A program made the position numbers and the translations under genes. Positions 55,474 through 64,000 of a DNA stretch of 64,000 bases are shown piece after piece. The notes under the pieces were generated by a model. It did no database searches, had not been told where the DNA came from, and saw only the letters and a list, made by a program, of their open reading frames with translations. Source of the DNA: Candidatus Zixiibacteriota bacterium (lineage in GTDB: Bacteria; Zixibacteria; MSB-5A5; JAABVY01; JAHJOQ01); contig JAHJOQ010000092.1 of assembly GCA_018820315.1 (NCBI GenBank), positions 6,591-70,590 of the forward strand. The letters are read 5' to 3'. The number at the start of each line of letters is the position of its first letter. Position 1 is the first letter of the stretch.

Positions 55474-56415
55474 ATGATTGAGATAAAGAATCTATCCAAA
55501 TACTACGGCGACTTTCCCGCTGTCGATGATATCTCATTCGAGGTACCCAAAGGACAGATACTCGGATTCCTGGGTCCGAACGGCGCGGGCAAGACGACGA
55601 CAGTCCGTGTGGTGACGGGATTTCTTCCTCCGACCTACGGAACTGTGCTCGTTGATGGTTACGATATCTCATCCGATTCAATAGAAGTCCGCAAACGCAT
55701 CGGATATCTGCCGGAGAATACGCCGCTTTATACCGAAATGAATGTCATCGACTACCTTAAGTTCATCGTTGATATGCGCAAAGATGGCATCTCCCGACCG
55801 GGCAAGCGGATAAAGCAGGTCGTAGAGCAGTGTGGACTTGGTGATGTCACGTACAAGGATATCGGTGAACTCTCCAAAGGCTTCCGCCAGAGAGTCGGCA
55901 TTGCGCAGGCGATGGTACACGATCCGCCGATTCTCATCCTCGATGAGCCGACGGCAGGGCTCGATCCGAATCAGATTGTCGAGATTCGCAGACTTATCAA
56001 AGATCTCGGTCGAGAAAAGACGGTTATACTCTGTTCGCATATACTTCCCGAAGTGGAGGCGACGTGCGCTCGTGTTGTAATCATTCATAATGGCAAGATT
56101 GCGGCTGATGGCAGTCCTAAGGAGCTGCAGGCGTCATCGGAAGGGAAGGGGACTGTTTACATACAGATCAAGGGCGCCGGTCCGGAACTAACACAGAAGC
56201 TGGAGAGTGTCCCCGGCGTAGAGCGAGTGACGGATGCCCGGAACATTGGAGAGAACATCTCTGATTTCACTTTGGAAGTCTTCAAAGGCGCTGATCCGCG
56301 CGAAGATCTGTTTAGGCTTTGCGTGCACAACAATCTCGTGTTGCTGGAGATGAACCGGCGCGAGATTTCACTGGAAGATGTGTTCCATGCTCTGACAAAA
56401 GCGGAGGGCATGTAG
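55474..56415 (+). CDS. gldA: ABC transporter ATP-binding protein (GldA-like, ABC-2 family)
   Basis: Walker A GPNGAGKTT. Signature LSKGFRQRVGIAQA. Walker B ILILDEPTAGLD. H-loop. Confidence 0.7.
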   Translation: MIEIKNLSKYYGDFPAVDDISFEVPKGQILGFLGPNGAGKTTTVRVVTGFLPPTYGTVLVDGYDISSDSIEVRKRIGYLPENTPLYTEMNVIDYLKFIVDMRKDGISRPGKRIKQVVEQCGLGDVTYKDIGELSKGFRQRVGIAQAMVHDPPILILDEPTAGLDPNQIVEIRRLIKDLGREKTVILCSHILPEVEATCARVVIIHNGKIAADGSPKELQASSEGKGTVYIQIKGAGPELTQKLESVPGVERVTDARNIGENISDFTLEVFKGADPREDLFRLCVHNNLVLLEMNRREISLEDVFHALTKAEGM

Positions 56416-57126
56416 ATGTCGAATATCTGGGTGCTTACACGTCGCGAACTGAAAGCATATTTCAGTTCACCGATTGCATATATCATAATGACTCTCTTTC
56501 TGCTGTTCTCTGCGTGGTTTTTCGCGTCATCACTTTTTCTTGCAAACACTGCAGATCTGAGAAGTCTTTTCTCCGGCGCGAGGATGCTGTTGCTCTTTTT
56601 CGTACCGGCATTAGCGATGCGGATGCTTGCGGAGGAGAAACGCTCAGGAACGATTGAGATTCTCTCGACCATGCCACTGAAAGACTGGCAGCTTGTGCTC
56701 GGCAAGTTCATTCCGTCATTCCTGCTGATATCGATCACGCTGCTTCTGACACTTGTTCACTATATCACGCTGGTCATTCTCGGGAATCCCGATTTTGGCG
56801 CGTCATTCGGCGGGTACGTGGGGATGTTCTTCATGTCGGGAGTCTATCTGTCGATTGGCCTATTCACGTCGAGCTTAACGAAGAATCAGATCGTGGCATT
56901 CATCACAGCATTCGTGATTATATTTGTTCTCTTTCTGCTCGATAAGATCGTAATCTTCATGCCGAGCTATGTCGCGACCATCTTCGAGTTCCTTTCGACC
57001 GACTATCACTACGAGAATATAGCACGAGGCGTTATTGATAGCCGCGATGTGATCTACTACGTGTCGTTGATTTTCTTTTTCCTGTTCCTGACGGTCAAGT
57101 CGCTTGAAACGAGGAAGTGGAAGTAG
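56416..57126 (+). CDS. gldF: ABC-2 family permease (GldF-like)
   Basis: Six predicted TM helices, immediately after the ATPase gene. Confidence 0.6.
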   Translation: MSNIWVLTRRELKAYFSSPIAYIIMTLFLLFSAWFFASSLFLANTADLRSLFSGARMLLLFFVPALAMRMLAEEKRSGTIEILSTMPLKDWQLVLGKFIPSFLLISITLLLTLVHYITLVILGNPDFGASFGGYVGMFFMSGVYLSIGLFTSSLTKNQIVAFITAFVIIFVLFLLDKIVIFMPSYVATIFEFLSTDYHYENIARGVIDSRDVIYYVSLIFFFLFLTVKSLETRKWK

Positions 57127-57127
57127 T

Positions 57128-58717
57128 ATGGCTACGGGAGTTAAGAAAGGCGCGACCGCGAGCACGACGATAATCATCGTTGTTGGGTGCCTGGTTTTCG
57201 CGAATCTGATTTCAGTCAATCTGTTCACGCGCGCGGATCTGACGGACAGCGGAATATACTCACTGTCAGAAGCCTCGAAAGAGCTGGTCCACAATCTTAC
57301 GGACCGTGTTGTCATTAAATGCTACTTCACCGAGGATCTGCCGCCGCCCTATAACCAGAACGCTCGTTACCTCAAGGATCAGCTTGCGGAATATCGCGCA
57401 TATTCCGGCGGCAAGCTTCAGGTCGAGTTTGTCGATCCCGCTCAGACTGACAGGGAGCAGGAAGCTCAGCAATATCGTATACCTCCGGTTCAGGTGAACG
57501 CCTACGAGAGCGACCGTCTTGAGATCAAGAAGGTCTATATGGGAATGGTCTTCCTGTATGAAGACCGGACAGAGGTGTTGCCGGTGCTTCAATCGACTGC
57601 CGGGCTCGAATACGAGATTTCTCGCACTATCCGCAAAATTACATCGGCTTCGATGCCTCGGATCGCATTTGTCACAGGTCATGGGGAGTCAGACTTGCAG
57701 CAGACTCTCAAGAATATTAATCAGGTTTTGTCCCGAGAGTATATCATCACTCCGCTTGACCTGGCGAATCAAACTGAAATACAGAGCAATATCGACGCCG
57801 TTCTGATTGTGTCGCCTAAGGCGGCATTCAGCGAGTGGGAGCTGTTTCTTCTCGACCAATACCTGATGAAGGGGGGCAAGGTCGGATTCTTCATCGATAA
57901 ATTCAATTGCGATATACAGAACAATAGCTCGACTCCTATTTCAACCGGACTGGGTGACCTGCTCAGAAAGTATGGCGTAGGAATCAACGATGACCTGGTC
58001 TTGGATGCACTATGTGCGAGGATAGGGGTGCAGCAGCAGACTGGGTTCTTCCGCATCCAGAACCAGGTGGAGTTTAGATATTTCCCGCGCGTCACCGATT
58101 TTCAAGAGGAGAATGTGATCGTAAAGGGCTTCGACGGCCTCACGTTCACATTCATCAGTTCGCTTGACACTGCCGTCGCCGTTCCACAGGGTGTTCAGAG
58201 AGAGATTCTTGCCTGGTCATCCGAGCTGTCTGCAGCAGAAAAGGATCCATTCAATTTCGATCCGTTCAGAGAGTTTGGACGCGCCGATCTTGACCGTCAG
58301 CACATTCCGCTTGTCGCGGCTATGACGGGGCAATTCCCGAGCTATTTCTCTGGTATGGGGATACCGATGTATACCGGGACCGATACAACGTTTAATCCTG
58401 CGACAGTCGTGAAAGTTGACTCATCGATGACCACAAGAATGATCGTCGTTGGTGATGGCGATTTTGCTGAGGATCGAAATATGAGTTCGCAGAGCAATCT
58501 GGTCTTCTTCATGAACGTCGTCGACTGGCTATCTCAGGACGAAGGCCTCATTTCGATTCGATCCAAGCAGGTCGCGAGCCGTCCGCTCGATGAGATTTCC
58601 AGCGGTTGGAAACGCGTTATCAAGTATTCCAATATCCTGGCCATGCCAATTCTGGTGATCATGTTTGGCGTGATTCGGTGGCGGATTCGCAAATCGAACA
58701 AGAAGAGGCGACTCTGA
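57128..58717 (+). CDS. gldG: GldG-like ABC-transporter auxiliary component (N-terminal TM, large extracytoplasmic domain, C-terminal TM)
   Basis: About 530 aa. TM at N-terminus and near the C-terminus (ILAMPILVIMFGVIRW). Conserved gldA-gldF-gldG order. Confidence 0.55.
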   Translation: MATGVKKGATASTTIIIVVGCLVFANLISVNLFTRADLTDSGIYSLSEASKELVHNLTDRVVIKCYFTEDLPPPYNQNARYLKDQLAEYRAYSGGKLQVEFVDPAQTDREQEAQQYRIPPVQVNAYESDRLEIKKVYMGMVFLYEDRTEVLPVLQSTAGLEYEISRTIRKITSASMPRIAFVTGHGESDLQQTLKNINQVLSREYIITPLDLANQTEIQSNIDAVLIVSPKAAFSEWELFLLDQYLMKGGKVGFFIDKFNCDIQNNSSTPISTGLGDLLRKYGVGINDDLVLDALCARIGVQQQTGFFRIQNQVEFRYFPRVTDFQEENVIVKGFDGLTFTFISSLDTAVAVPQGVQREILAWSSELSAAEKDPFNFDPFREFGRADLDRQHIPLVAAMTGQFPSYFSGMGIPMYTGTDTTFNPATVVKVDSSMTTRMIVVGDGDFAEDRNMSSQSNLVFFMNVVDWLSQDEGLISIRSKQVASRPLDEISSGWKRVIKYSNILAMPILVIMFGVIRWRIRKSNKKRRL

Positions 58718-59661
58718 TGAAGAAGCAGTATCTCTCGATACTTATTCTTATCGTTTTGGTTGCGGCGTACTTCGCGGTGCAGCACCGGGAAACATCAATC
58801 ATTGGTCCAAAAGGCTCTTCAGAGTTTCTCGACATCGATACTGCGACAGTAAACAAGATTTCCATGCGAAGACTCGGAGCCGCGGTGACTTTGACGCGGG
58901 CGGCGGGCATCTGGTATGTCGCACGGGATGAGAATGCGTATAAGGCGGATGCAAGTGCCATAAACCAGATTGTGACTGCGATTGCGGATGTTCAGGTAGG
59001 TAATGTGATCTCCGACAATCCTGGCAATCAGATCAAATTCCAGGTTGATACACTGACTGGCTCGACGGTCGAGCTGTACTCCGGAGACAGGTTGGTTGCG
59101 GGGTTGGTCGTCGGGAAGATGTCGAGTGACTTTGGGCACACATATGTGCGAAGGATAGGGAGTGAAAACGTCTACCTTGCAACGGGGATGTTGACGCACC
59201 AATTCACCAGAGCACCGGACGACTGGCGAGATCATACGGTCATTGAGGTTCCTCAGGATGACGTCGTCTCGATAGAAATCAAGTCTGGAAAAGAGCATTA
59301 TCAGGTAGTTCGAAGCGACTCAATATGGCAGTTATCGAGATTCCCATTCAGCGAAACAATTGATGGCGATCAGGACAGGATTGGTAGGCTATTGAGCACG
59401 GTCTGTCAGCTTGATGCGAGCGGCTTCGCAACCCCCTACGATACAACAGAGTATGATTTTGCCGATGTGCAGTCGATCTGGTCGATCACTTTAAGTGATG
59501 GTTCAGCTACGCTGCTCGAAGCCGCTGTTCCGATAGGGGATAGCAAACGGCATTTTATGAGAGTTTCGGGCGACGAAACGATATTTATATTGCCTGATAA
59601 CGTTTGGAGTGAGATCGCGAAAAGTATCGATGATCTCCTTCCAGACGAAAAAAACAGTTGA
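58717..59661 (+). CDS. DUF4340-like protein (commonly found downstream of gldG)
   Basis: TGATG overlap with the gldG stop. N-terminal TM MKKQYLSILILIVLVAAYFA. About 315 aa. Confidence 0.4.
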   Translation: MKKQYLSILILIVLVAAYFAVQHRETSIIGPKGSSEFLDIDTATVNKISMRRLGAAVTLTRAAGIWYVARDENAYKADASAINQIVTAIADVQVGNVISDNPGNQIKFQVDTLTGSTVELYSGDRLVAGLVVGKMSSDFGHTYVRRIGSENVYLATGMLTHQFTRAPDDWRDHTVIEVPQDDVVSIEIKSGKEHYQVVRSDSIWQLSRFPFSETIDGDQDRIGRLLSTVCQLDASGFATPYDTTEYDFADVQSIWSITLSDGSATLLEAAVPIGDSKRHFMRVSGDETIFILPDNVWSEIAKSIDDLLPDEKNS

Positions 59662-59852: not shown

Positions 59853-60491
59853 ATGGAATCGCTACTTTCCATCATGAAGAAGATCATTTCGCTCTTAAAG
59901 AAAAACTACGCACAGGCATGTTGCACGTTGCAGCATGCATCGCCGCTTACGTTGCTGATATCTACCATACTATCAGCGCAGGCAACCGACAAATCGGTCA
60001 ATGCGGTCACCCCTGACTTGTTCAGGAGATTCCCCGATGCAGAGTCTTTTGCCAAGGCGCGGCTGGCATCAATTGAAAAGATTATCAAGCCGCTGGGACT
60101 GTACAAAAACAAGGCAAAGTCTATACGCAACTGTTGCAGAATACTACTCGATGAATTCGGTGGTGAAGTCCCGCGCACGATGGCTGAGCTTGTACGCCTA
60201 CCGGGTGTCGGGCGCAAGACTGCGAATGTTGTTCTCGGGAATGCGTTCGGAATCGAAGAAGGGATTTGCGTTGACACTCATGTCGGAAGGCTTTCTCGAA
60301 GGATCGGACTTTCCGAGTCGAAAGACCCTGCAGATGTAGAGCAAGACTTGATGAAGAAGGTGCCAAGACCAGACTGGACAATCATTTCACACTTGTTGAT
60401 TGCGCATGGTCGCGCGGTTTGTGACGCGCGAAAACCTGACTGCGAGAACTGCTTCCTGAAGAAGCCATGCCCAAGGAAAGGCGTGGAGTAA
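59853..60491 (+). CDS. nth: endonuclease III (DNA glycosylase/AP lyase)
   Basis: HhH-GPD LVRLPGVGRKTANVVLGNAFG with catalytic Lys/Asp context. C-terminal 4Fe-4S ligand set CDARKPDCENCFLKKPC. Confidence 0.9.
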   Translation: MESLLSIMKKIISLLKKNYAQACCTLQHASPLTLLISTILSAQATDKSVNAVTPDLFRRFPDAESFAKARLASIEKIIKPLGLYKNKAKSIRNCCRILLDEFGGEVPRTMAELVRLPGVGRKTANVVLGNAFGIEEGICVDTHVGRLSRRIGLSESKDPADVEQDLMKKVPRPDWTIISHLLIAHGRAVCDARKPDCENCFLKKPCPRKGVE

Positions 60492-60495
60492 CAGC

Positions 60496-62052
60496 CTAAT
60501 CCCCCCCAAACACAAACGCGGTGAATTTCTGAATTTGGGCGCCCGTTTTCCAGGCGTCGGTGGGAAGGCCCGCCTTGCGGCATGTCTGTGCGAGAAATGT
60601 CTCACGGTCCCATCCGTAGTCTGTTGCAACCTGCGGAAGGAGCAACCCGCGCCGTCCCATGTGCGAGATCATCAACCCGTCGCGTCCAACTGTAATATCG
60701 TTCACGTCCTCGACATCCACTAACGGAGTCAAGACCGATATCTCCAGATCGATCTTGTCGAGTTCTTGCTTTGACAAGGGATTGAAACGGGGGTCGCGCA
60801 ATGCTGCGCTGACTGCACATTCCGATACGCACTCTTTTAGTGGCACAATTGCCTCGGTATACCCGATGCAACCCCGCAACTGCCCATTAATTGTGATAGT
60901 CACAAACGCCGCCCCCGGCTCGGCCAGTTTCCCGGAGAGATTGTCGAGCGCCGGTCTGTCGCCGTTGTTCACTGCAGCCTCTATTGACTGACGCGCAAGT
61001 TTCAACAGTGCGTGTTGCTCAGACTTGCTCAGATACTCTTCTGTCTCATTCTTTTCTGACTTCTGAGGCTTTGTTTCCACTTCGTCCTCCCTGTATATCA
61101 CAGCCGAGACATAACCGACAACACTTGTGGGATCGCCTGAAGATGTTCCCGAATCGTCGTACTTGAGAATTCTCACACCGGTCAGTCCAAGCCTCTCACA
61201 GGCGATCAGCACTGCCGCAGTCGGCCCACCGCCGCACATCTTGGCGGCGTCGGTCTGTAATTTCGACGCCAGCGTTTCGCCCTTCATATTCTGTATCAAC
61301 GAAATGCAGTAATTATCATATTGCTCAGCTGTTTCGCGTGGATAATAATGTGAGAGATCAGTCGAAACTACAAGCAGGATGTCATCGCGACCACGGAGCA
61401 CATTTGATAGCGCATCGGCCAGCGCTTTGATCGTAGTCTCAGACTGATATCCCATCTCGATGGGCACGATCTTGAATCTACCGAGTACTCGCTGCAGGAA
61501 CGGCACCTGAACCTCGATCGAATGCTCCTGGCGATGTTCTTCTGTGCCGGGATATATGGCGCTGCTCTCGTTGCAGAGTCTGTCTGCCAGTTCTGCGTCT
61601 ATCTCGACGTCGCCGAGCGGCGTACGCCACTTTCCCTCATTATATACGGCGCATCCGTCGAAGCCAACCCTGTGGGATGGTCCAATGATTATGATTGTCG
61701 AGTAGTCGAGACCCTTTAATAATTTGTAGCCGTATGCGGCGGTCGGTCCGGAATATATGTAACCCGCATGAGGCGAAATCAACGCAGCGGGACGACCGAC
61801 ATCTGACGGCACGGTGGCGAGTGCGATCATCGAATCGACAGTACTTGCCAACACAGCAGGATTGCCCGGATAGAATACGCCGGCGAATTGGGGGATTCGA
61901 ATGCTGCCGGCGAACAAACACCCGACGAAAATCAGCAGAATAGCTGCCGCAATTTCAGAAGACCATCCAAATTTCATTTGTTCGAGCTGTCCAAAGCGTA
62001 TAATATAGAGTAAGAGTGTTATACCAATGTCTATGGAAATATCTGTAATCAC
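60496..62052 (-). CDS. fusion protein: AmmeMemoRadiSam system protein B (Memo-like dioxygenase fold) + AMMECR1 domain (system protein A)
   Basis: N-terminal TM, then the Memo-like block AALISPHAGYIYSGPTAAYGY. C-terminal AMMECR1 block GAAFVTITINGQLRGCIGYTEAI...GLLLPQVA. Confidence 0.68.
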   Translation of the reverse strand: MITDISIDIGITLLLYIIRFGQLEQMKFGWSSEIAAAILLIFVGCLFAGSIRIPQFAGVFYPGNPAVLASTVDSMIALATVPSDVGRPAALISPHAGYIYSGPTAAYGYKLLKGLDYSTIIIIGPSHRVGFDGCAVYNEGKWRTPLGDVEIDAELADRLCNESSAIYPGTEEHRQEHSIEVQVPFLQRVLGRFKIVPIEMGYQSETTIKALADALSNVLRGRDDILLVVSTDLSHYYPRETAEQYDNYCISLIQNMKGETLASKLQTDAAKMCGGGPTAAVLIACERLGLTGVRILKYDDSGTSSGDPTSVVGYVSAVIYREDEVETKPQKSEKNETEEYLSKSEQHALLKLARQSIEAAVNNGDRPALDNLSGKLAEPGAAFVTITINGQLRGCIGYTEAIVPLKECVSECAVSAALRDPRFNPLSKQELDKIDLEISVLTPLVDVEDVNDITVGRDGLMISHMGRRGLLLPQVATDYGWDRETFLAQTCRKAGLPTDAWKTGAQIQKFTAFVFGGD

Positions 62053-62949
62053 ATGTCAAAAAGCAAGGTAGTTCTGGTCAAGTCGAAATCGCTCAGTTCA
62101 GGAGGAGCTGGCGATCAACGTATCTTGGGGACAATGCTCTCCAAAGGGCTCTCCGTTTTGTATGACGGGATAGATTCTGTGGACGCATGGAGAAAGCTCA
62201 GCGATTCTACCGGCAGGGTTGGGATGAAGACGAATTGTGTATCCGGAAGGAACATGTCAACTTCAGTCGAATTGGCGACGGCTCTTGCGGAAAAGCTTGT
62301 CGCTGCAGGAAAGGCGGAGCGTGACATAATCATTTGGGATAGGCAGAACAGAGAACTCGAATCGGCCGGATACTCCCTGAATTATGCCAAGAATGGTGTC
62401 AGATGTTTTGGAACAGATACGCGCGATGTCGGGTATGCAAGCTCTTTTCACACGAATGGCAAGGTTGCCAGCATGGTGACAAACATCCTCGAAATTGAGT
62501 GTGATCATCTGATTAATGTTCCGATCCTCAAGGATCACTCTCTGGCGGGCGTATCGGGTGCGATGAAAAATCTTTACGGCGCAATTCACAATCCGAACAA
62601 GTATCATGACAACAATTGCGATCCGTATGTAGCCGAATTGAGTGCGCTGCCGATTATCAGGAGCAAATCGTCACTCATCGTGACCGATATGACGCGTGTG
62701 CAGTATCACGGTGGACCCGGATTCAGGGGCTCGTATGTTGTGAAGTATGGAGCGGTGATTATGTCGTTTGATGCTGTTGCAATTGATGCTATCGGAGGGA
62801 CGATCCTCGACCGGCTTCGCATTGAGAACGACATGCATACTCTGGCGGAGTCCGGTCGGCCGGCAAAGTGGCTCATCACTGCGGAGATGCTCGGTCTCGG
62901 CAACTCCGATCCTGCAAATATCGAACTGATTGTGATTGAGGTCGATTGA
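62053..62949 (+). CDS. DUF362 domain protein
   Basis: KVVLVKS...RVGMKTNCVSG...TSVELATALAEKLVAAGKAERDIIIWD follows the DUF362 N-terminal pattern (V.IVK...VLLKPN...HP.VV.A......G...IVGD). Confidence 0.5.
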   Translation: MSKSKVVLVKSKSLSSGGAGDQRILGTMLSKGLSVLYDGIDSVDAWRKLSDSTGRVGMKTNCVSGRNMSTSVELATALAEKLVAAGKAERDIIIWDRQNRELESAGYSLNYAKNGVRCFGTDTRDVGYASSFHTNGKVASMVTNILEIECDHLINVPILKDHSLAGVSGAMKNLYGAIHNPNKYHDNNCDPYVAELSALPIIRSKSSLIVTDMTRVQYHGGPGFRGSYVVKYGAVIMSFDAVAIDAIGGTILDRLRIENDMHTLAESGRPAKWLITAEMLGLGNSDPANIELIVIEVD

Positions 62950-62953
62950 TTCC

Positions 62954-64000
62954 ATGAGACGGAGATCATTCATCAAGAGAGTAGGCGCGACAGCGGGTCT
63001 GATGTGTGCCGGAGGCCATATCTGCGATGTGATCTGTGGTTCACTGGAAAATGCGTACGCATTCGGTTATACAGACTCTCTTTCTGACGTCGAAGCGCGG
63101 TATTATAAGAAATTGGAAGAAGATATTATCCAGTGCCAACTCTGTCCGCGCGAGTGCACGGTATCTGATGTTGAACGGGGGTTCTGCGGAGTGCGCGAGA
63201 ATCAGAAAGGCGTTTACAAGACGCTCGTCTACAACCGCGCCTGTTCAATGAACATTGACCCTATCGAGAAGAAGCCTCTGTTCCATTTTCGGCCCGGTAC
63301 GACTGCGTTCTCCATAGCCACTGCCGGATGCAACGTTAACTGCAAGTTCTGCCAGAACTGGAATATCTCGCAGGTTAGGCCGGAGCAAGTGCAGAATATC
63401 GAATTGACATCTGACGAGATAGCCGCCGAGTGCATCGAGCGAAATATCCCGACCGTGGCGTACACTTACTCCGAGCCGGTGATCTTCTACGAGTATATGT
63501 ACGATACCGCCGTCAGGACGCGCCGGGACAAGATCAGGAATGTCGTCATTACCGGCGGGTATATCAATGAGAAACCGCTGCTTGAGTTGCTGGAGGTCGT
63601 GGACGCGGTCAAGGTCGATCTCAAGTCGTTCTCAGAACAGTATTATAAAGATATCGTGAATGGTGAGCTGAAGCCGGTTCTCGAAAGCATAAAGCTGATT
63701 CACAAGAACGGAAAATGGCTGGAGCTTGTCTATCTTGTCGTGCCAACTCTCAATGACTCAGATGAAGAATTTCGCAATCTATGTCGCTGGGTCAGGGACG
63801 AATTGTCGCCCGATGTCCCGATTCACTTCACTCGATTTCATCCGACATATCTGATGACGAACCTTCCGCCTACACCGGTTGAGACGCTCGAGCGTGCATT
63901 CGCCATCGCTCAAGACGAAGGTTTGAACTTTCCATATGTCGGCAATGTGCCGGGCAATAAGGGCGAGAATACTCGCTGTCCGAAGTGCGGTGATGTCGTG
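62954..64000 (+). CDS. AmmeMemoRadiSam system radical SAM enzyme (3-prime partial) with twin-arginine-type N-terminal signal
   Basis: MRRRSFIKRVGATAGLMCAGG Tat-like motif. CNVNCKFCQNW CxxxCxxC radical SAM cluster motif. Frame open to the window end. Not in the ORF track because no stop lies within the window. Confidence 0.72.
   Translation, partial: MRRRSFIKRVGATAGLMCAGGHICDVICGSLENAYAFGYTDSLSDVEARYYKKLEEDIIQCQLCPRECTVSDVERGFCGVRENQKGVYKTLVYNRACSMNIDPIEKKPLFHFRPGTTAFSIATAGCNVNCKFCQNWNISQVRPEQVQNIELTSDEIAAECIERNIPTVAYTYSEPVIFYEYMYDTAVRTRRDKIRNVVITGGYINEKPLLELLEVVDAVKVDLKSFSEQYYKDIVNGELKPVLESIKLIHKNGKWLELVYLVVPTLNDSDEEFRNLCRWVRDELSPDVPIHFTRFHPTYLMTNLPPTPVETLERAFAIAQDEGLNFPYVGNVPGNKGENTRCPKCGDVV

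Follow-up and report, generated by a model that had tools for sequence, protein, structure and literature searches.

The region described here, positions 60496-64000 of a 64-kb stretch of DNA (the whole of which is called the window), holds the three AmmeMemoRadiSam components clustered within 3.5 kb. A Memo-AMMECR1 fusion (proteins B and A) is encoded on the minus strand and diverges from an operon on the plus strand, in which a DUF362 gene lies 4 nt upstream of the AmmeMemoRadiSam radical SAM enzyme (rSAM) and runs in the same direction. An earlier note on this DNA had assigned these families and placed a divergent DUF362 gene opposite the fusion gene; Pfam and NCBIfam matches bear out the assignments, and the DUF362 gene was found where the note had it. 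The features are located as follows.

60496..61977, minus strand: Memo-AMMECR1 fusion gene, 493 aa (Pfam/NCBIfam matches; NCBI gene calls)
60508..61005, minus strand: AMMECR1 domain, with LRGCIG motif (PF01871, E 3e-54, aa 350-515)
61099..61893, minus strand: Memo domain (PF01875, E 1e-70, aa 54-318 of the 518-aa open reading frame)
61903..61977, minus strand: predicted Sec-type/lipoprotein-like signal, MKFGWSSEIAAAILLIFVGCLFAGS, with lipobox-like FVGC (read from the sequence)
61978..62052, no strand: divergent intergenic region of 75 nt between the fusion gene and DUF362
62053..62949, plus strand: DUF362 gene, 298 aa, no signal peptide (PF04015, 77.3 bits, threshold 24)
62954..64000, plus strand: AmmeMemoRadiSam radical SAM gene, residues 1-349 of 379 in the window (TIGR04337)
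62954..63061, plus strand: predicted Tat signal peptide, aa 1-36 (TIGR01409)
63134..63187, plus strand: N-terminal cluster of Cys residues, C61-x2-C64-x3-C68...C78, putatively an auxiliary site for a metal or an Fe-S cluster (alignment)
63329..63352, plus strand: radical SAM CX3CX2C motif, C126, C130 and C133 (invariant in alignments)

The fusion had been described as a 518-aa protein with an N-terminal transmembrane (TM) segment. Both domains do lie on one open reading frame (60496..62052, minus strand), the longest form of which starts with a GTG at 62052 that abuts the DUF362 ATG and gives 518 aa. The length did not hold, however, as the start is likely the ATG at 61977, which yields 493 aa and is the NCBI call on two identical contigs as well as the start in an 89 % identical homologue (P0392). 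The hydrophobic N-terminal segment is real, but a Sec-type or lipoprotein-like signal fits it better than a plain TM helix. TIGR04336 (protein B) matched the fusion with 279.8 bits (cutoff 26) and TIGR04335 (protein A) with 186.6 bits (cutoff 99). The nearest solved structure to the Memo domain is human MEMO1, and those nearest to the AMMECR1 domain are the archaeal AMMECR1 homologues 1wsc, 1vaj and 1zq7. All 120 best fusion homologues include both domains; in 102 of them the Memo domain is preceded by a strongly hydrophobic N-terminal segment, and at least 23 have a lipobox-like Cys.

The 75-nt intergenic region is presumably the promoter region of both transcription units. A TATAAT is read on the plus strand near 62001, and a sigma-70-like match in this region (62027..62000, minus strand) scores no better than chance. 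Just beyond the window end the rSAM gene is followed by a gene whose product is a polytopic membrane protein that contains a spermidine-synthase-like (SpeE-like) domain, a domain type that binds SAM or decarboxylated SAM (dcSAM); no terminator was found between these two genes.

The rSAM gene starts with the ATG at 62954 (MRRRSFIKRVGATAGL...) and its reading frame runs past the window end. It was completed, as the earlier note had proposed, from a 100 % identical protein of a Zixibacteria MAG (P0001) and from locus L001, giving a full length of 379 aa. TIGR04337 matched it with 356.1 bits (cutoff 220), the profile alignment running from residue 48 onward, so that all three AmmeMemoRadiSam families (TIGR04335, TIGR04336 and TIGR04337) are far above their cutoffs and, as in the canonical system, encoded by clustered genes. 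Canonical AmmeMemoRadiSam rSAMs are about 335 aa long and have no N-terminal extension, whereas the window rSAM carries a Tat signal. In alignments it keeps all Cys ligands and core motifs of the canonical members; in the N-terminal cluster three residues (C61, C64 and C78) show no variation, and C68 almost none, in exported and canonical members alike.

By sequence, the closest solved structure to the rSAM is PflA (3c8f, E 2e-9), which is also the next-best NCBIfam match, and this likeness suggests a protein-directed, activase-like enzyme. PflA differs in that it is cytoplasmic, has about 245 aa and is without the N-terminal four-Cys and C-terminal CxxC...CxxC modules. Identity with the glycyl-radical activases of the PflA family was rejected, as TIGR02493 reached 64 bits against a cutoff of 232 and the locus has no glycyl-radical enzyme gene.

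The twin-arginine-type signal that the earlier note had pointed out on the rSAM is supported by TIGR01409 (TAT_signal_seq), which matched the N-terminus with 17.7 bits (cutoff 16.7; motif RRRSFIK); two control N-termini, those of the fusion and DUF362, gave no match to this model. Pfam TAT_signal stayed under threshold in the window rSAM and gave sub-threshold matches in three of five orthologues tested. The signal, called like the TM segments by rules, is composed of the n-region MRRRSFIKR, the h-region VGATAGLMCAGG and a c-region ending in AYA before F (residues 34-37). In the AlphaFold model residues 1-42 have a pLDDT of 42-50, so there is no confidently folded domain there. An RR pair is found in 112 of the 120 best rSAM homologues; it is followed by a hydrophobic residue at +2 in 103, a hydrophobic residue at +3 in 109 and K or R at +4 in 95, and 97 have A-x-A and then F or L. 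The h-region has a median 10-residue Kyte-Doolittle hydropathy of 1.7 in the homologues. A leader that formed part of a conserved cytoplasmic domain with no Tat consensus would, as the earlier note pointed out, have spoken against a Tat signal; instead, the orthologues keep RR-x-F-L-K, and the stretch between it and A-x-A is variable and weakly hydrophobic. As the signal is conserved across the clade, it is not a chance match. The c-region (LENAYAF / LGGxQNAxAF) is conserved beyond the need of a plain signal peptide and could have a binding function, instead of or alongside a cleavage site.

The AlphaFold model of DUF362 (pLDDT 94.7) has a LarA-like fold: its top 14 Foldseek matches in the PDB are all of the LarA family, with probability 1.0 and a TM-score of about 0.5. 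A sequence search of DUF362 against solved structures gave no detectable match. LarA-family proteins are nickel-pincer nucleotide enzymes and, at about 420 aa, are longer than DUF362. DUF362 and the LarA lactate/malate racemase family are placed in one Pfam clan, CL0471 (PMC11770544). The invariant residues of DUF362 are K160-D161-H162, K172, H179, H185 and C189.

We surveyed 80 species-level genomes from more than 12 phyla, which contain 81 orthologous rSAM genes. Sixty-seven of these genes are Tat-type, eight are Sec-like, two have KR/RK variants and four are signal-less. Memo and AMMECR1 are fused at every surveyed locus that has them, and a crude rule flagged an export signal in 32 of the 35 fused genes. 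DUF362 lies immediately upstream of rSAM at 41 of the 80 loci; it is so placed for 42 of 68 Tat-type rSAM genes and for none of the eight Sec-type genes. Its own RRxFLK signal is present on 29 DUF362 copies, and the nine or ten copies without any signal are all from Zixibacteria and Aminicenantes-type loci. Copies with and without a signal stand at the same place in the gene order. The fusion and the DUF362 linkage, for which the earlier note had proposed such a survey, are thus both features of the whole clade. By sequence analysis DUF362 is a dedicated fourth component whose gene is translationally coupled to that of rSAM.

Among the 150 closest representatives of 50 %-identity clusters, 92 are canonical (starting with 'MKEALFY..CxLCP', with no extension), 26 have a Tat-signal extension and another 12 are long fusion proteins that have a signal or a TM segment. 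The window is not peculiar but a member of a large, phylogenetically broad subfamily defined by the same set of features, a large and apparently undescribed branch of the Memo/AMMECR1/radical-SAM system; in the literature searched we found no description of an exported AmmeMemoRadiSam variant. Compared with the canonical system, A and B are fused here, DUF362 and the membrane SpeE-like protein are added, and each component either bears an export signal or can borrow one. DUF362 and SpeE-like partners were absent at all three canonical loci with judgeable neighbourhoods, a small sample.

The SpeE-like gene adjoins rSAM in 58 % of the loci with enough flank. For 35 of 37 homologues of its product, a crude positive-inside analysis put the soluble domain on the side facing away from the cytoplasm; the count for the window's own protein was tied at 10:10. 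Further membrane partners are found in related loci. A NapH/NapG-like gene is present in 11 loci, and a DsbD_2 gene is adjacent to rSAM in six of the eight Sec-type loci and in none of the 74 others. Two relatives (P0265 and P0288) consist of one N-terminal TM, an FMN_bind domain that has the flavinylation motif D..SGAT, and rSAM, in this order and with no TM between FMN_bind and rSAM; the neighbour gene of P0265 encodes DsbD_2 plus Fer4_5. In other fusions rSAM is joined to a NapH-like domain (P0257 and P0275), to DsbD_2 (P0252 and P0272), to a signal and CBM_11 (P0251), to a signal and a beta-propeller (P0245), or to a signal, Memo and AMMECR1 (P0271).

These fused or adjacent FMN_bind (SGAT), NapH-like Fer4_5 and DsbD_2 domains resemble the flavinylated systems whose FMN_bind/NapH-like/DsbD-like architecture delivers electrons to extracytosolic reductases (Meheust et al. 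2021, PMC8238504). According to that paper, the FMN_bind domains that ApbE flavinylates lie outside the cytosol (PMC8238504); its main text makes no mention of radical SAM, Memo, AMMECR1 or DUF362. The window differs from those systems in having no conduit genes of its own; no NapH-like or DsbD-like gene was found within its 64 kb.

Taken at face value, the export signals on the components imply radical SAM chemistry in the cell envelope. We consider it likely, from gene content and signal predictions, that the AmmeMemoRadiSam system of this locus is an extracytoplasmic ('exported') variant. The envelope-associated role that the earlier note had raised as possible is strengthened, since the export signals, like the fusion and the linkage to DUF362, extend across the clade. 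The rSAM would take up its Fe-S clusters in the cytoplasm and then cross the membrane through Tat in the folded state. In Zixibacteria and Aminicenantes the signal-less DUF362 would leave the cytoplasm bound to rSAM as a 'hitchhiker' passenger, and in other phyla it would be exported by its own Tat signal. Hitchhiker export through Tat is known from the small and large subunits of [NiFe]-hydrogenases and from DmsAB. The window resembles these systems in that the gene of an RRxFLK Fe-S protein is co-transcribed and translationally coupled with that of a signal-less, probably cofactor-binding partner, DUF362, the putative passenger; it differs in its cargo, a radical SAM enzyme, a class not known among Tat substrates. 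The fusion protein would pass through Sec to the outer face of the inner membrane and be anchored there or set free; the components may then act jointly on an envelope-located substrate; alternatively, the PflA-like rSAM may activate or modify the Memo-AMMECR1 protein. Electrons would reach the periplasmic side through membrane conduits, for which the NapH/NapG-like polyferredoxins, DsbD_2/CcdA-like proteins and ApbE-type flavinylated FMN-binding domains of related loci are candidates, and for bringing or presenting the adenosyl-methionine cofactor there the best candidate is the SpeE-like membrane protein. That this whole arrangement is realised, with the complete rSAM machinery outside the cytoplasm, fed by conduits, supplied with SAM or dcSAM by the SpeE-like protein and modifying an envelope substrate, is a proposal we make only tentatively. 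We know of no SAM or low-potential reductant in the periplasm, of no SAM exporter, and of no precedent for the acquisition of Fe-S clusters outside the cytoplasm, which Sec-type orthologues would require.

It is unlikely, in our judgement, that the Tat-like peptide is instead a non-exporting remnant that binds a chaperone or tethers the enzyme, so that rSAM stays at the cytoplasmic face of the membrane and only Memo-AMMECR1 is outside. Vestigial Tat leaders that bind chaperones do exist (e.g. NarG and NarJ), and the unusual conservation of the c-region (QNAxAF / ENAYAF) across phyla would suit such a role. SAM and reductant are available at the cytoplasmic face, and export meets the chemical difficulty that no periplasmic SAM is known; the Fe-S clusters of NapH-type proteins are on the cytoplasmic side too, so the P0257 and P0275 fusions leave the side of rSAM unfixed. 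Remnant leaders, however, typically lose the RR pair, which is kept here in nearly all homologues; the window sequence passes the TIGR01409 cutoff, and the DUF362 partners bear independent canonical Tat signals. Moreover, rSAM stands directly behind an extracytosolic-type flavinylated domain with no intervening TM in P0265 and P0288, behind a Sec signal in one chain with Memo and AMMECR1 in P0271, and in fusion with CBM_11 and a beta-propeller elsewhere.

A reaction that precedes export is quite unlikely as well. Here rSAM would, for example, act in the cytoplasm to mature a residue or cofactor of DUF362 and afterwards serve mainly as its signal-bearing carrier, and periplasmic SAM would no longer be required. 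The translational coupling of signal-less DUF362 genes to Tat-bearing rSAM genes is consistent with this, as is the LarA-like fold, which suggests a bound organometallic or nucleotide cofactor in need of maturation. Yet DUF362 needs no carrier in most phyla, where it bears a Tat signal itself, and an adjacent DUF362 is missing at about half of the Tat-type loci. Dedicated conduits for electrons across the membrane, together with the FMN_bind fusions, speak for an rSAM that is reduced outside the cytoplasm and hence active there, and Memo-AMMECR1, which passes Sec unfolded, would meet rSAM only after export. It is very improbable that the signal is an artefact of a wrong start or a chance RR, with the true start of an ordinary cytoplasmic enzyme downstream, e.g. 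at Met17 (MCAGG...): some database calls do start at an internal Met (P0003, P0011, P0014 and others), but even these truncated calls begin within the same leader, whose protein sequence is conserved in orthologues of as little as about 47 % identity, with an invariant RR and a variable h-region, and a GAGG lies 11 nt upstream of the ATG at 62954.

Radical SAM enzymes depend on SAM, on an electron donor of low potential and on Fe-S clusters that are sensitive to oxygen, and to our knowledge they are regarded as strictly cytoplasmic. A broad clade with a conserved Tat signal, exported partners and transmembrane electron conduits challenges this view and raises the question of the route by which SAM reaches the periplasm. 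If the exported variant is as proposed, it would be the first radical SAM system of the periplasm, with adenosyl-methionine exported or presented across the membrane. Memo and AMMECR1 are conserved from archaea to humans and tied to human disease, and their biochemical function is a long-standing problem. An exported variant would narrow their candidate substrates to envelope molecules, and the LarA-fold DUF362, the SpeE-like membrane protein and the carbohydrate-binding and flavinylated fusions provide new clues to what they do. Natural fusions like P0265, which would be self-reducing enzymes, offer a simple handle for experiment.

The locus at 60496-64000 carries genes of AmmeMemoRadiSam, a known, computationally defined system, together with a DUF362 gene, and the parent contig (L001) continues beyond the window with a gene for a SpeE-like membrane protein:

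60496..62052, minus strand: Memo-AMMECR1 fusion ORF (PF01875/TIGR04336, 279.8 bits, then PF01871/TIGR04335, 186.6 bits)
62053..62949, plus strand: DUF362 gene, 298 aa (PF04015, 77 bits)
ATG 62954 to beyond the window end, plus strand: radical SAM enzyme gene (TIGR04337, 356 bits against a cutoff of 220)
L001:9187-11442: SpeE-like membrane protein, 752 aa, 46 nt past the radical SAM stop and just beyond window position 64000

Both domain models match within one minus-strand ORF, which bears out the earlier note's placement of Memo and AMMECR1 on one polypeptide, and the DUF362 gene indeed diverges from it on the opposite strand, one base past the most upstream start codon of the fusion ORF. The fusion most likely starts at ATG 61977 (493 aa, N-terminus MKFGWSSEIAAAILLIFVGCLFAGS), because the NCBI calls on two identical contigs and an 89 %-identical homologue agree on this codon; a divergent intergenic region of 75 nt is then left. 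Four nucleotides separate the DUF362 stop from the radical SAM ATG at 62954. The radical SAM ORF could be completed from P0001, an identical full-length protein of 379 aa from Zixibacteria MAGs, and in the window ORF the TIGR04337 alignment begins only at residue 48. Promoter and terminator scans of the locus gave matches no better than those in shuffled sequence, and no terminator-like site was found in the gap between the radical SAM and SpeE-like genes.

The radical SAM protein begins with MRRRSFIKR-VGATAGLMCAGG-HICDVICGSLENAYA, followed by F. In this leader the n-region is basic and holds RRxFIK, the h-region is weakly hydrophobic, and residues 34-36 form an A-x-A site. The twin-arginine-type signal proposed earlier was recovered by the NCBI TAT_signal_seq model (17.7 bits, cutoff 16.7), which did not match the N-termini of the fusion or DUF362. 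RR stands near the start of 112 of the 120 closest database homologues (58-100 % identity); in the other eight the annotated start falls within this leader. A hydrophobic residue follows the RR at +2 in 103 of these homologues and at +3 in 109, K or R stands at +4 in 95, and 97 have A-x-A then F or L ahead of the conserved core. The h-region is freely variable in sequence yet moderately hydrophobic (median 10-residue hydropathy 1.7). In the AlphaFold model residues 1-42 have a pLDDT of 42-50 and the barrel one of 80-97; since this pLDDT is low, the leader is not a confident folded domain, and a folded cytoplasmic domain at this position was rejected. The arginines thus do not belong to a conserved cytoplasmic N-terminal domain whose orthologues lack a Tat consensus, the finding that would have spoken against a signal. 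The c-region of the leader (window 62954-63061) is unusually conserved across phyla, reading LENAYAF here and LGG(I/L)QNA(C/Y)AF elsewhere; this exceeds what a cleavage site needs and may reflect a chaperone-binding or recognition element.

How widely this arrangement occurs was examined in a scan with one genome per species, which yielded 80 loci that were analysed by our own profile searches and rule-based signal calls, with neighbourhood clustering run with known genes masked, against antisense ORFs of high-GC loci. The loci span Zixibacteria, Aminicenantes, Acidobacteriota, Caldithrix/KSB1, Planctomycetota (including anammox lineages), Omnitrophota, Latescibacterota, Eisenbacteria, Poribacteria, WOR-3, Elusimicrobia, Thermodesulfobacteriota and others. 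By these calls, which like all localisation calls here are rule-based inferences from sequence, the 81 radical SAM genes in the loci divide into 67 Tat-type, eight with a Sec-like hydrophobic leader without RR, two with KR/RK and four leaderless, one of the last being cut at a contig edge and another a second, canonical-type paralogue. A search of 1.84 billion cluster representatives returned 1342 family members at E <= 1e-30. The 150 closest representatives include 92 canonical proteins, 26 with an extension and Tat signal and 12 with long N-terminal fusions, all of which open with a signal or TM segment. Canonical members are about 335 aa long, start with 'MKEALFY..CxLCP' and carry CX3CX2C at about residue 80. 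They have in common with the exported members the CX3CX2C cysteines, an N-terminal Cys cluster (C61, C64 and C78 invariant, C68 nearly so), C-terminal Cys residues (three invariant, a fourth nearly invariant) and a Y-x-E-P motif; it therefore appears that the two groups differ in location and not in chemistry. Four canonical genes were inspected, one of them on a contig of only 1.3 kb, and the three neighbourhoods that could be judged, a sample too small to generalise, had no Memo, AMMECR1, DUF362 or SpeE-like neighbours. In one Omnitrophota locus (L074:4673-7119) a canonical signal-less paralogue and a Tat-type paralogue lie side by side, so one genome can hold both cytoplasmic and exported versions. 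The window is an ordinary member of the exported variant, and the interest lies in the variant itself.

The linkages pointed out in the earlier note extend well beyond this genome. Memo and AMMECR1 are fused in every surveyed locus that has both (35 genes including that of the window), and both domains are found in all 120 best homologues of the fusion. A strongly hydrophobic segment precedes the Memo domain at the N-terminus in 102 of these 120; a lipobox-like Cys occurs in at least 23, commonly ahead of an acidic linker, and about eight are short, signal-less cytoplasmic fusions. The signal counts are rule-based, and a few of the 'Tat' calls for Memo fusions probably represent Sec signals whose n-region contains RR. 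A protein-directed, activase-like action of the radical SAM enzyme on the Memo-AMMECR1 protein is plausible by analogy, because PflA is its closest solved relative.

DUF362 lies on the same strand directly upstream of 42 of the 68 Tat-type radical SAM genes, which rules out its presence here as a coincidence of this genome, and it was never found beside the eight Sec-type orthologues. Of the DUF362 copies, 29 bear an RRxFLK signal themselves. Nine or ten copies, that of the window included, have none; all come from Zixibacteria or Aminicenantes-type loci, in which the DUF362 and radical SAM genes overlap or nearly touch. This is the distribution one would predict if DUF362 has to be exported in folded form, by means of a signal of its own or in a complex with the radical SAM enzyme. 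The AlphaFold model of DUF362 (pLDDT 94.7) gave high-probability matches only to LarA-family nickel-pincer racemases, and when the DUF362 profile was searched against PDB sequences, no solved structure gave a meaningful match. DUF362 shares a Pfam clan with the N-terminal domain of LarA (PMC11770544). Residues K59, N61, D161, H162, K172, N173, N180-P181-N182, Y184, H185, C189, P191 and D212 are invariant in the subfamily, which suggests a cofactor or metal site and not a 4-Cys cluster. In eight Acidobacteriota loci (L017, L018, L028, L029, L032, L033, L037 and L040) the Tat-type DUF362 directly upstream of the radical SAM gene is joined, a few kb from that gene, by a second and different DUF362 paralogue that has a TM anchor at its N-terminus; a DUF6599 lipoprotein gene recurs in these loci and in Aminicenantes loci.

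Candidate electron donors and fused domains were found around some of the radical SAM genes. A NapH/NapG-like membrane polyferredoxin is encoded just upstream in 11 loci, mostly of Acidobacteriota and often with the DUF6599 lipoprotein, and a DsbD_2/CcdA-like gene is adjacent in six of eight Sec-type loci (L061, L064, L071, L076, L078 and L079, from Omnitrophota and Elusimicrobia) and in none of the 74 others. Within the window, tblastn detected no NapH/NapG-like, DsbD_2 or SpeE-like gene, and for DUF6599 only one weak, irrelevant match. Among cluster representatives the radical SAM domain is fused to DsbD_2 (P0252, P0272), to DsbD_2, FMN_bind and Fer4_5 (P0256), to a TM segment, FMN_bind and a NapH-like domain (P0257, P0275), and to a signal with Memo and AMMECR1 in one chain (P0271), with a beta-propeller (P0245) or with CBM_11 (P0251), the last of which hints at a glycan-related substrate. 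P0265 and P0288 consist of a single N-terminal TM, FMN_bind with a D..SGAT flavinylation motif and the radical SAM domain, with no TM between the two domains. P0265 is encoded at L084:658-3785, and the start of its gene overlaps an upstream gene for DsbD_2 and Fer4_5, an arrangement that resembles a complete extracytosolic route for electrons to a radical SAM enzyme. ApbE-flavinylated FMN_bind domains, NapH-like and DsbD-like proteins have been described as extracytosolic electron-transfer modules in a survey whose main text says nothing of radical SAM, Memo, AMMECR1 or DUF362 (PMC8238504).

In the SpeE-like protein a central spermidine-synthase-like domain (PF01564; NF002956 and NF037959 match weakly) is flanked on each side by about 6-7 TM segments. 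Its homologues adjoin the radical SAM gene in 58 % of the loci with enough flanking sequence. By a crude positive-inside count the soluble domain faces away from the cytoplasm in 35 of 37 homologues; for the protein of the window organism the count is tied at 10:10.

The reading that the sequences support best is of a system that probably works outside the cytoplasm in its entirety, the radical SAM enzyme included. The enzyme would be loaded with its Fe-S clusters and then exported folded through Tat; in this organism DUF362 would leave with it as a passenger, and Sec would export the Memo-AMMECR1 fusion, which may be a lipoprotein. The proteins would come together on the outer side of the inner membrane, beside the SpeE-like protein, the only candidate we found that may bring or present an adenosyl-methionine compound there. 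That the leader is instead a non-exporting tether or chaperone-binding peptide would suit the conserved c-region and avoid the problem of SAM supply outside the cytoplasm, but it is unlikely given the retained RR pair, the signals carried by the partners and the fusions of the enzyme with FMN_bind, CBM and Memo. It is also rather improbable that the SAM chemistry precedes export, and a start-codon artefact or chance match as the origin of the leader is very improbable.

An exported AmmeMemoRadiSam system was not described in the literature searched, which included flavinylation with radical SAM and membrane spermidine synthase and lay apart from Burroughs et al. 2019, reportedly the key comparative paper on Memo and Memo-AMMECR1 systems; nor did that literature report radical SAM enzymes that are periplasmic or targeted to Tat, the export of AMMECR1 or Memo proteins, or a link to DUF362. 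The B/A fusions had already been labelled as such by database annotators.

Directly downstream of the fusion, on the opposite strand, is endonuclease III (window 59853-60491; TIGR01083, 253 bits), an ordinary housekeeping gene. The four-gene cluster at 55474-59661 (ABC ATPase, ABC-2 permease, GldG-like ABC_transp_aux and a DUF4340 protein) is similar to ABC exporters of the gliding-motility type and seems to have no connection with the exported system.
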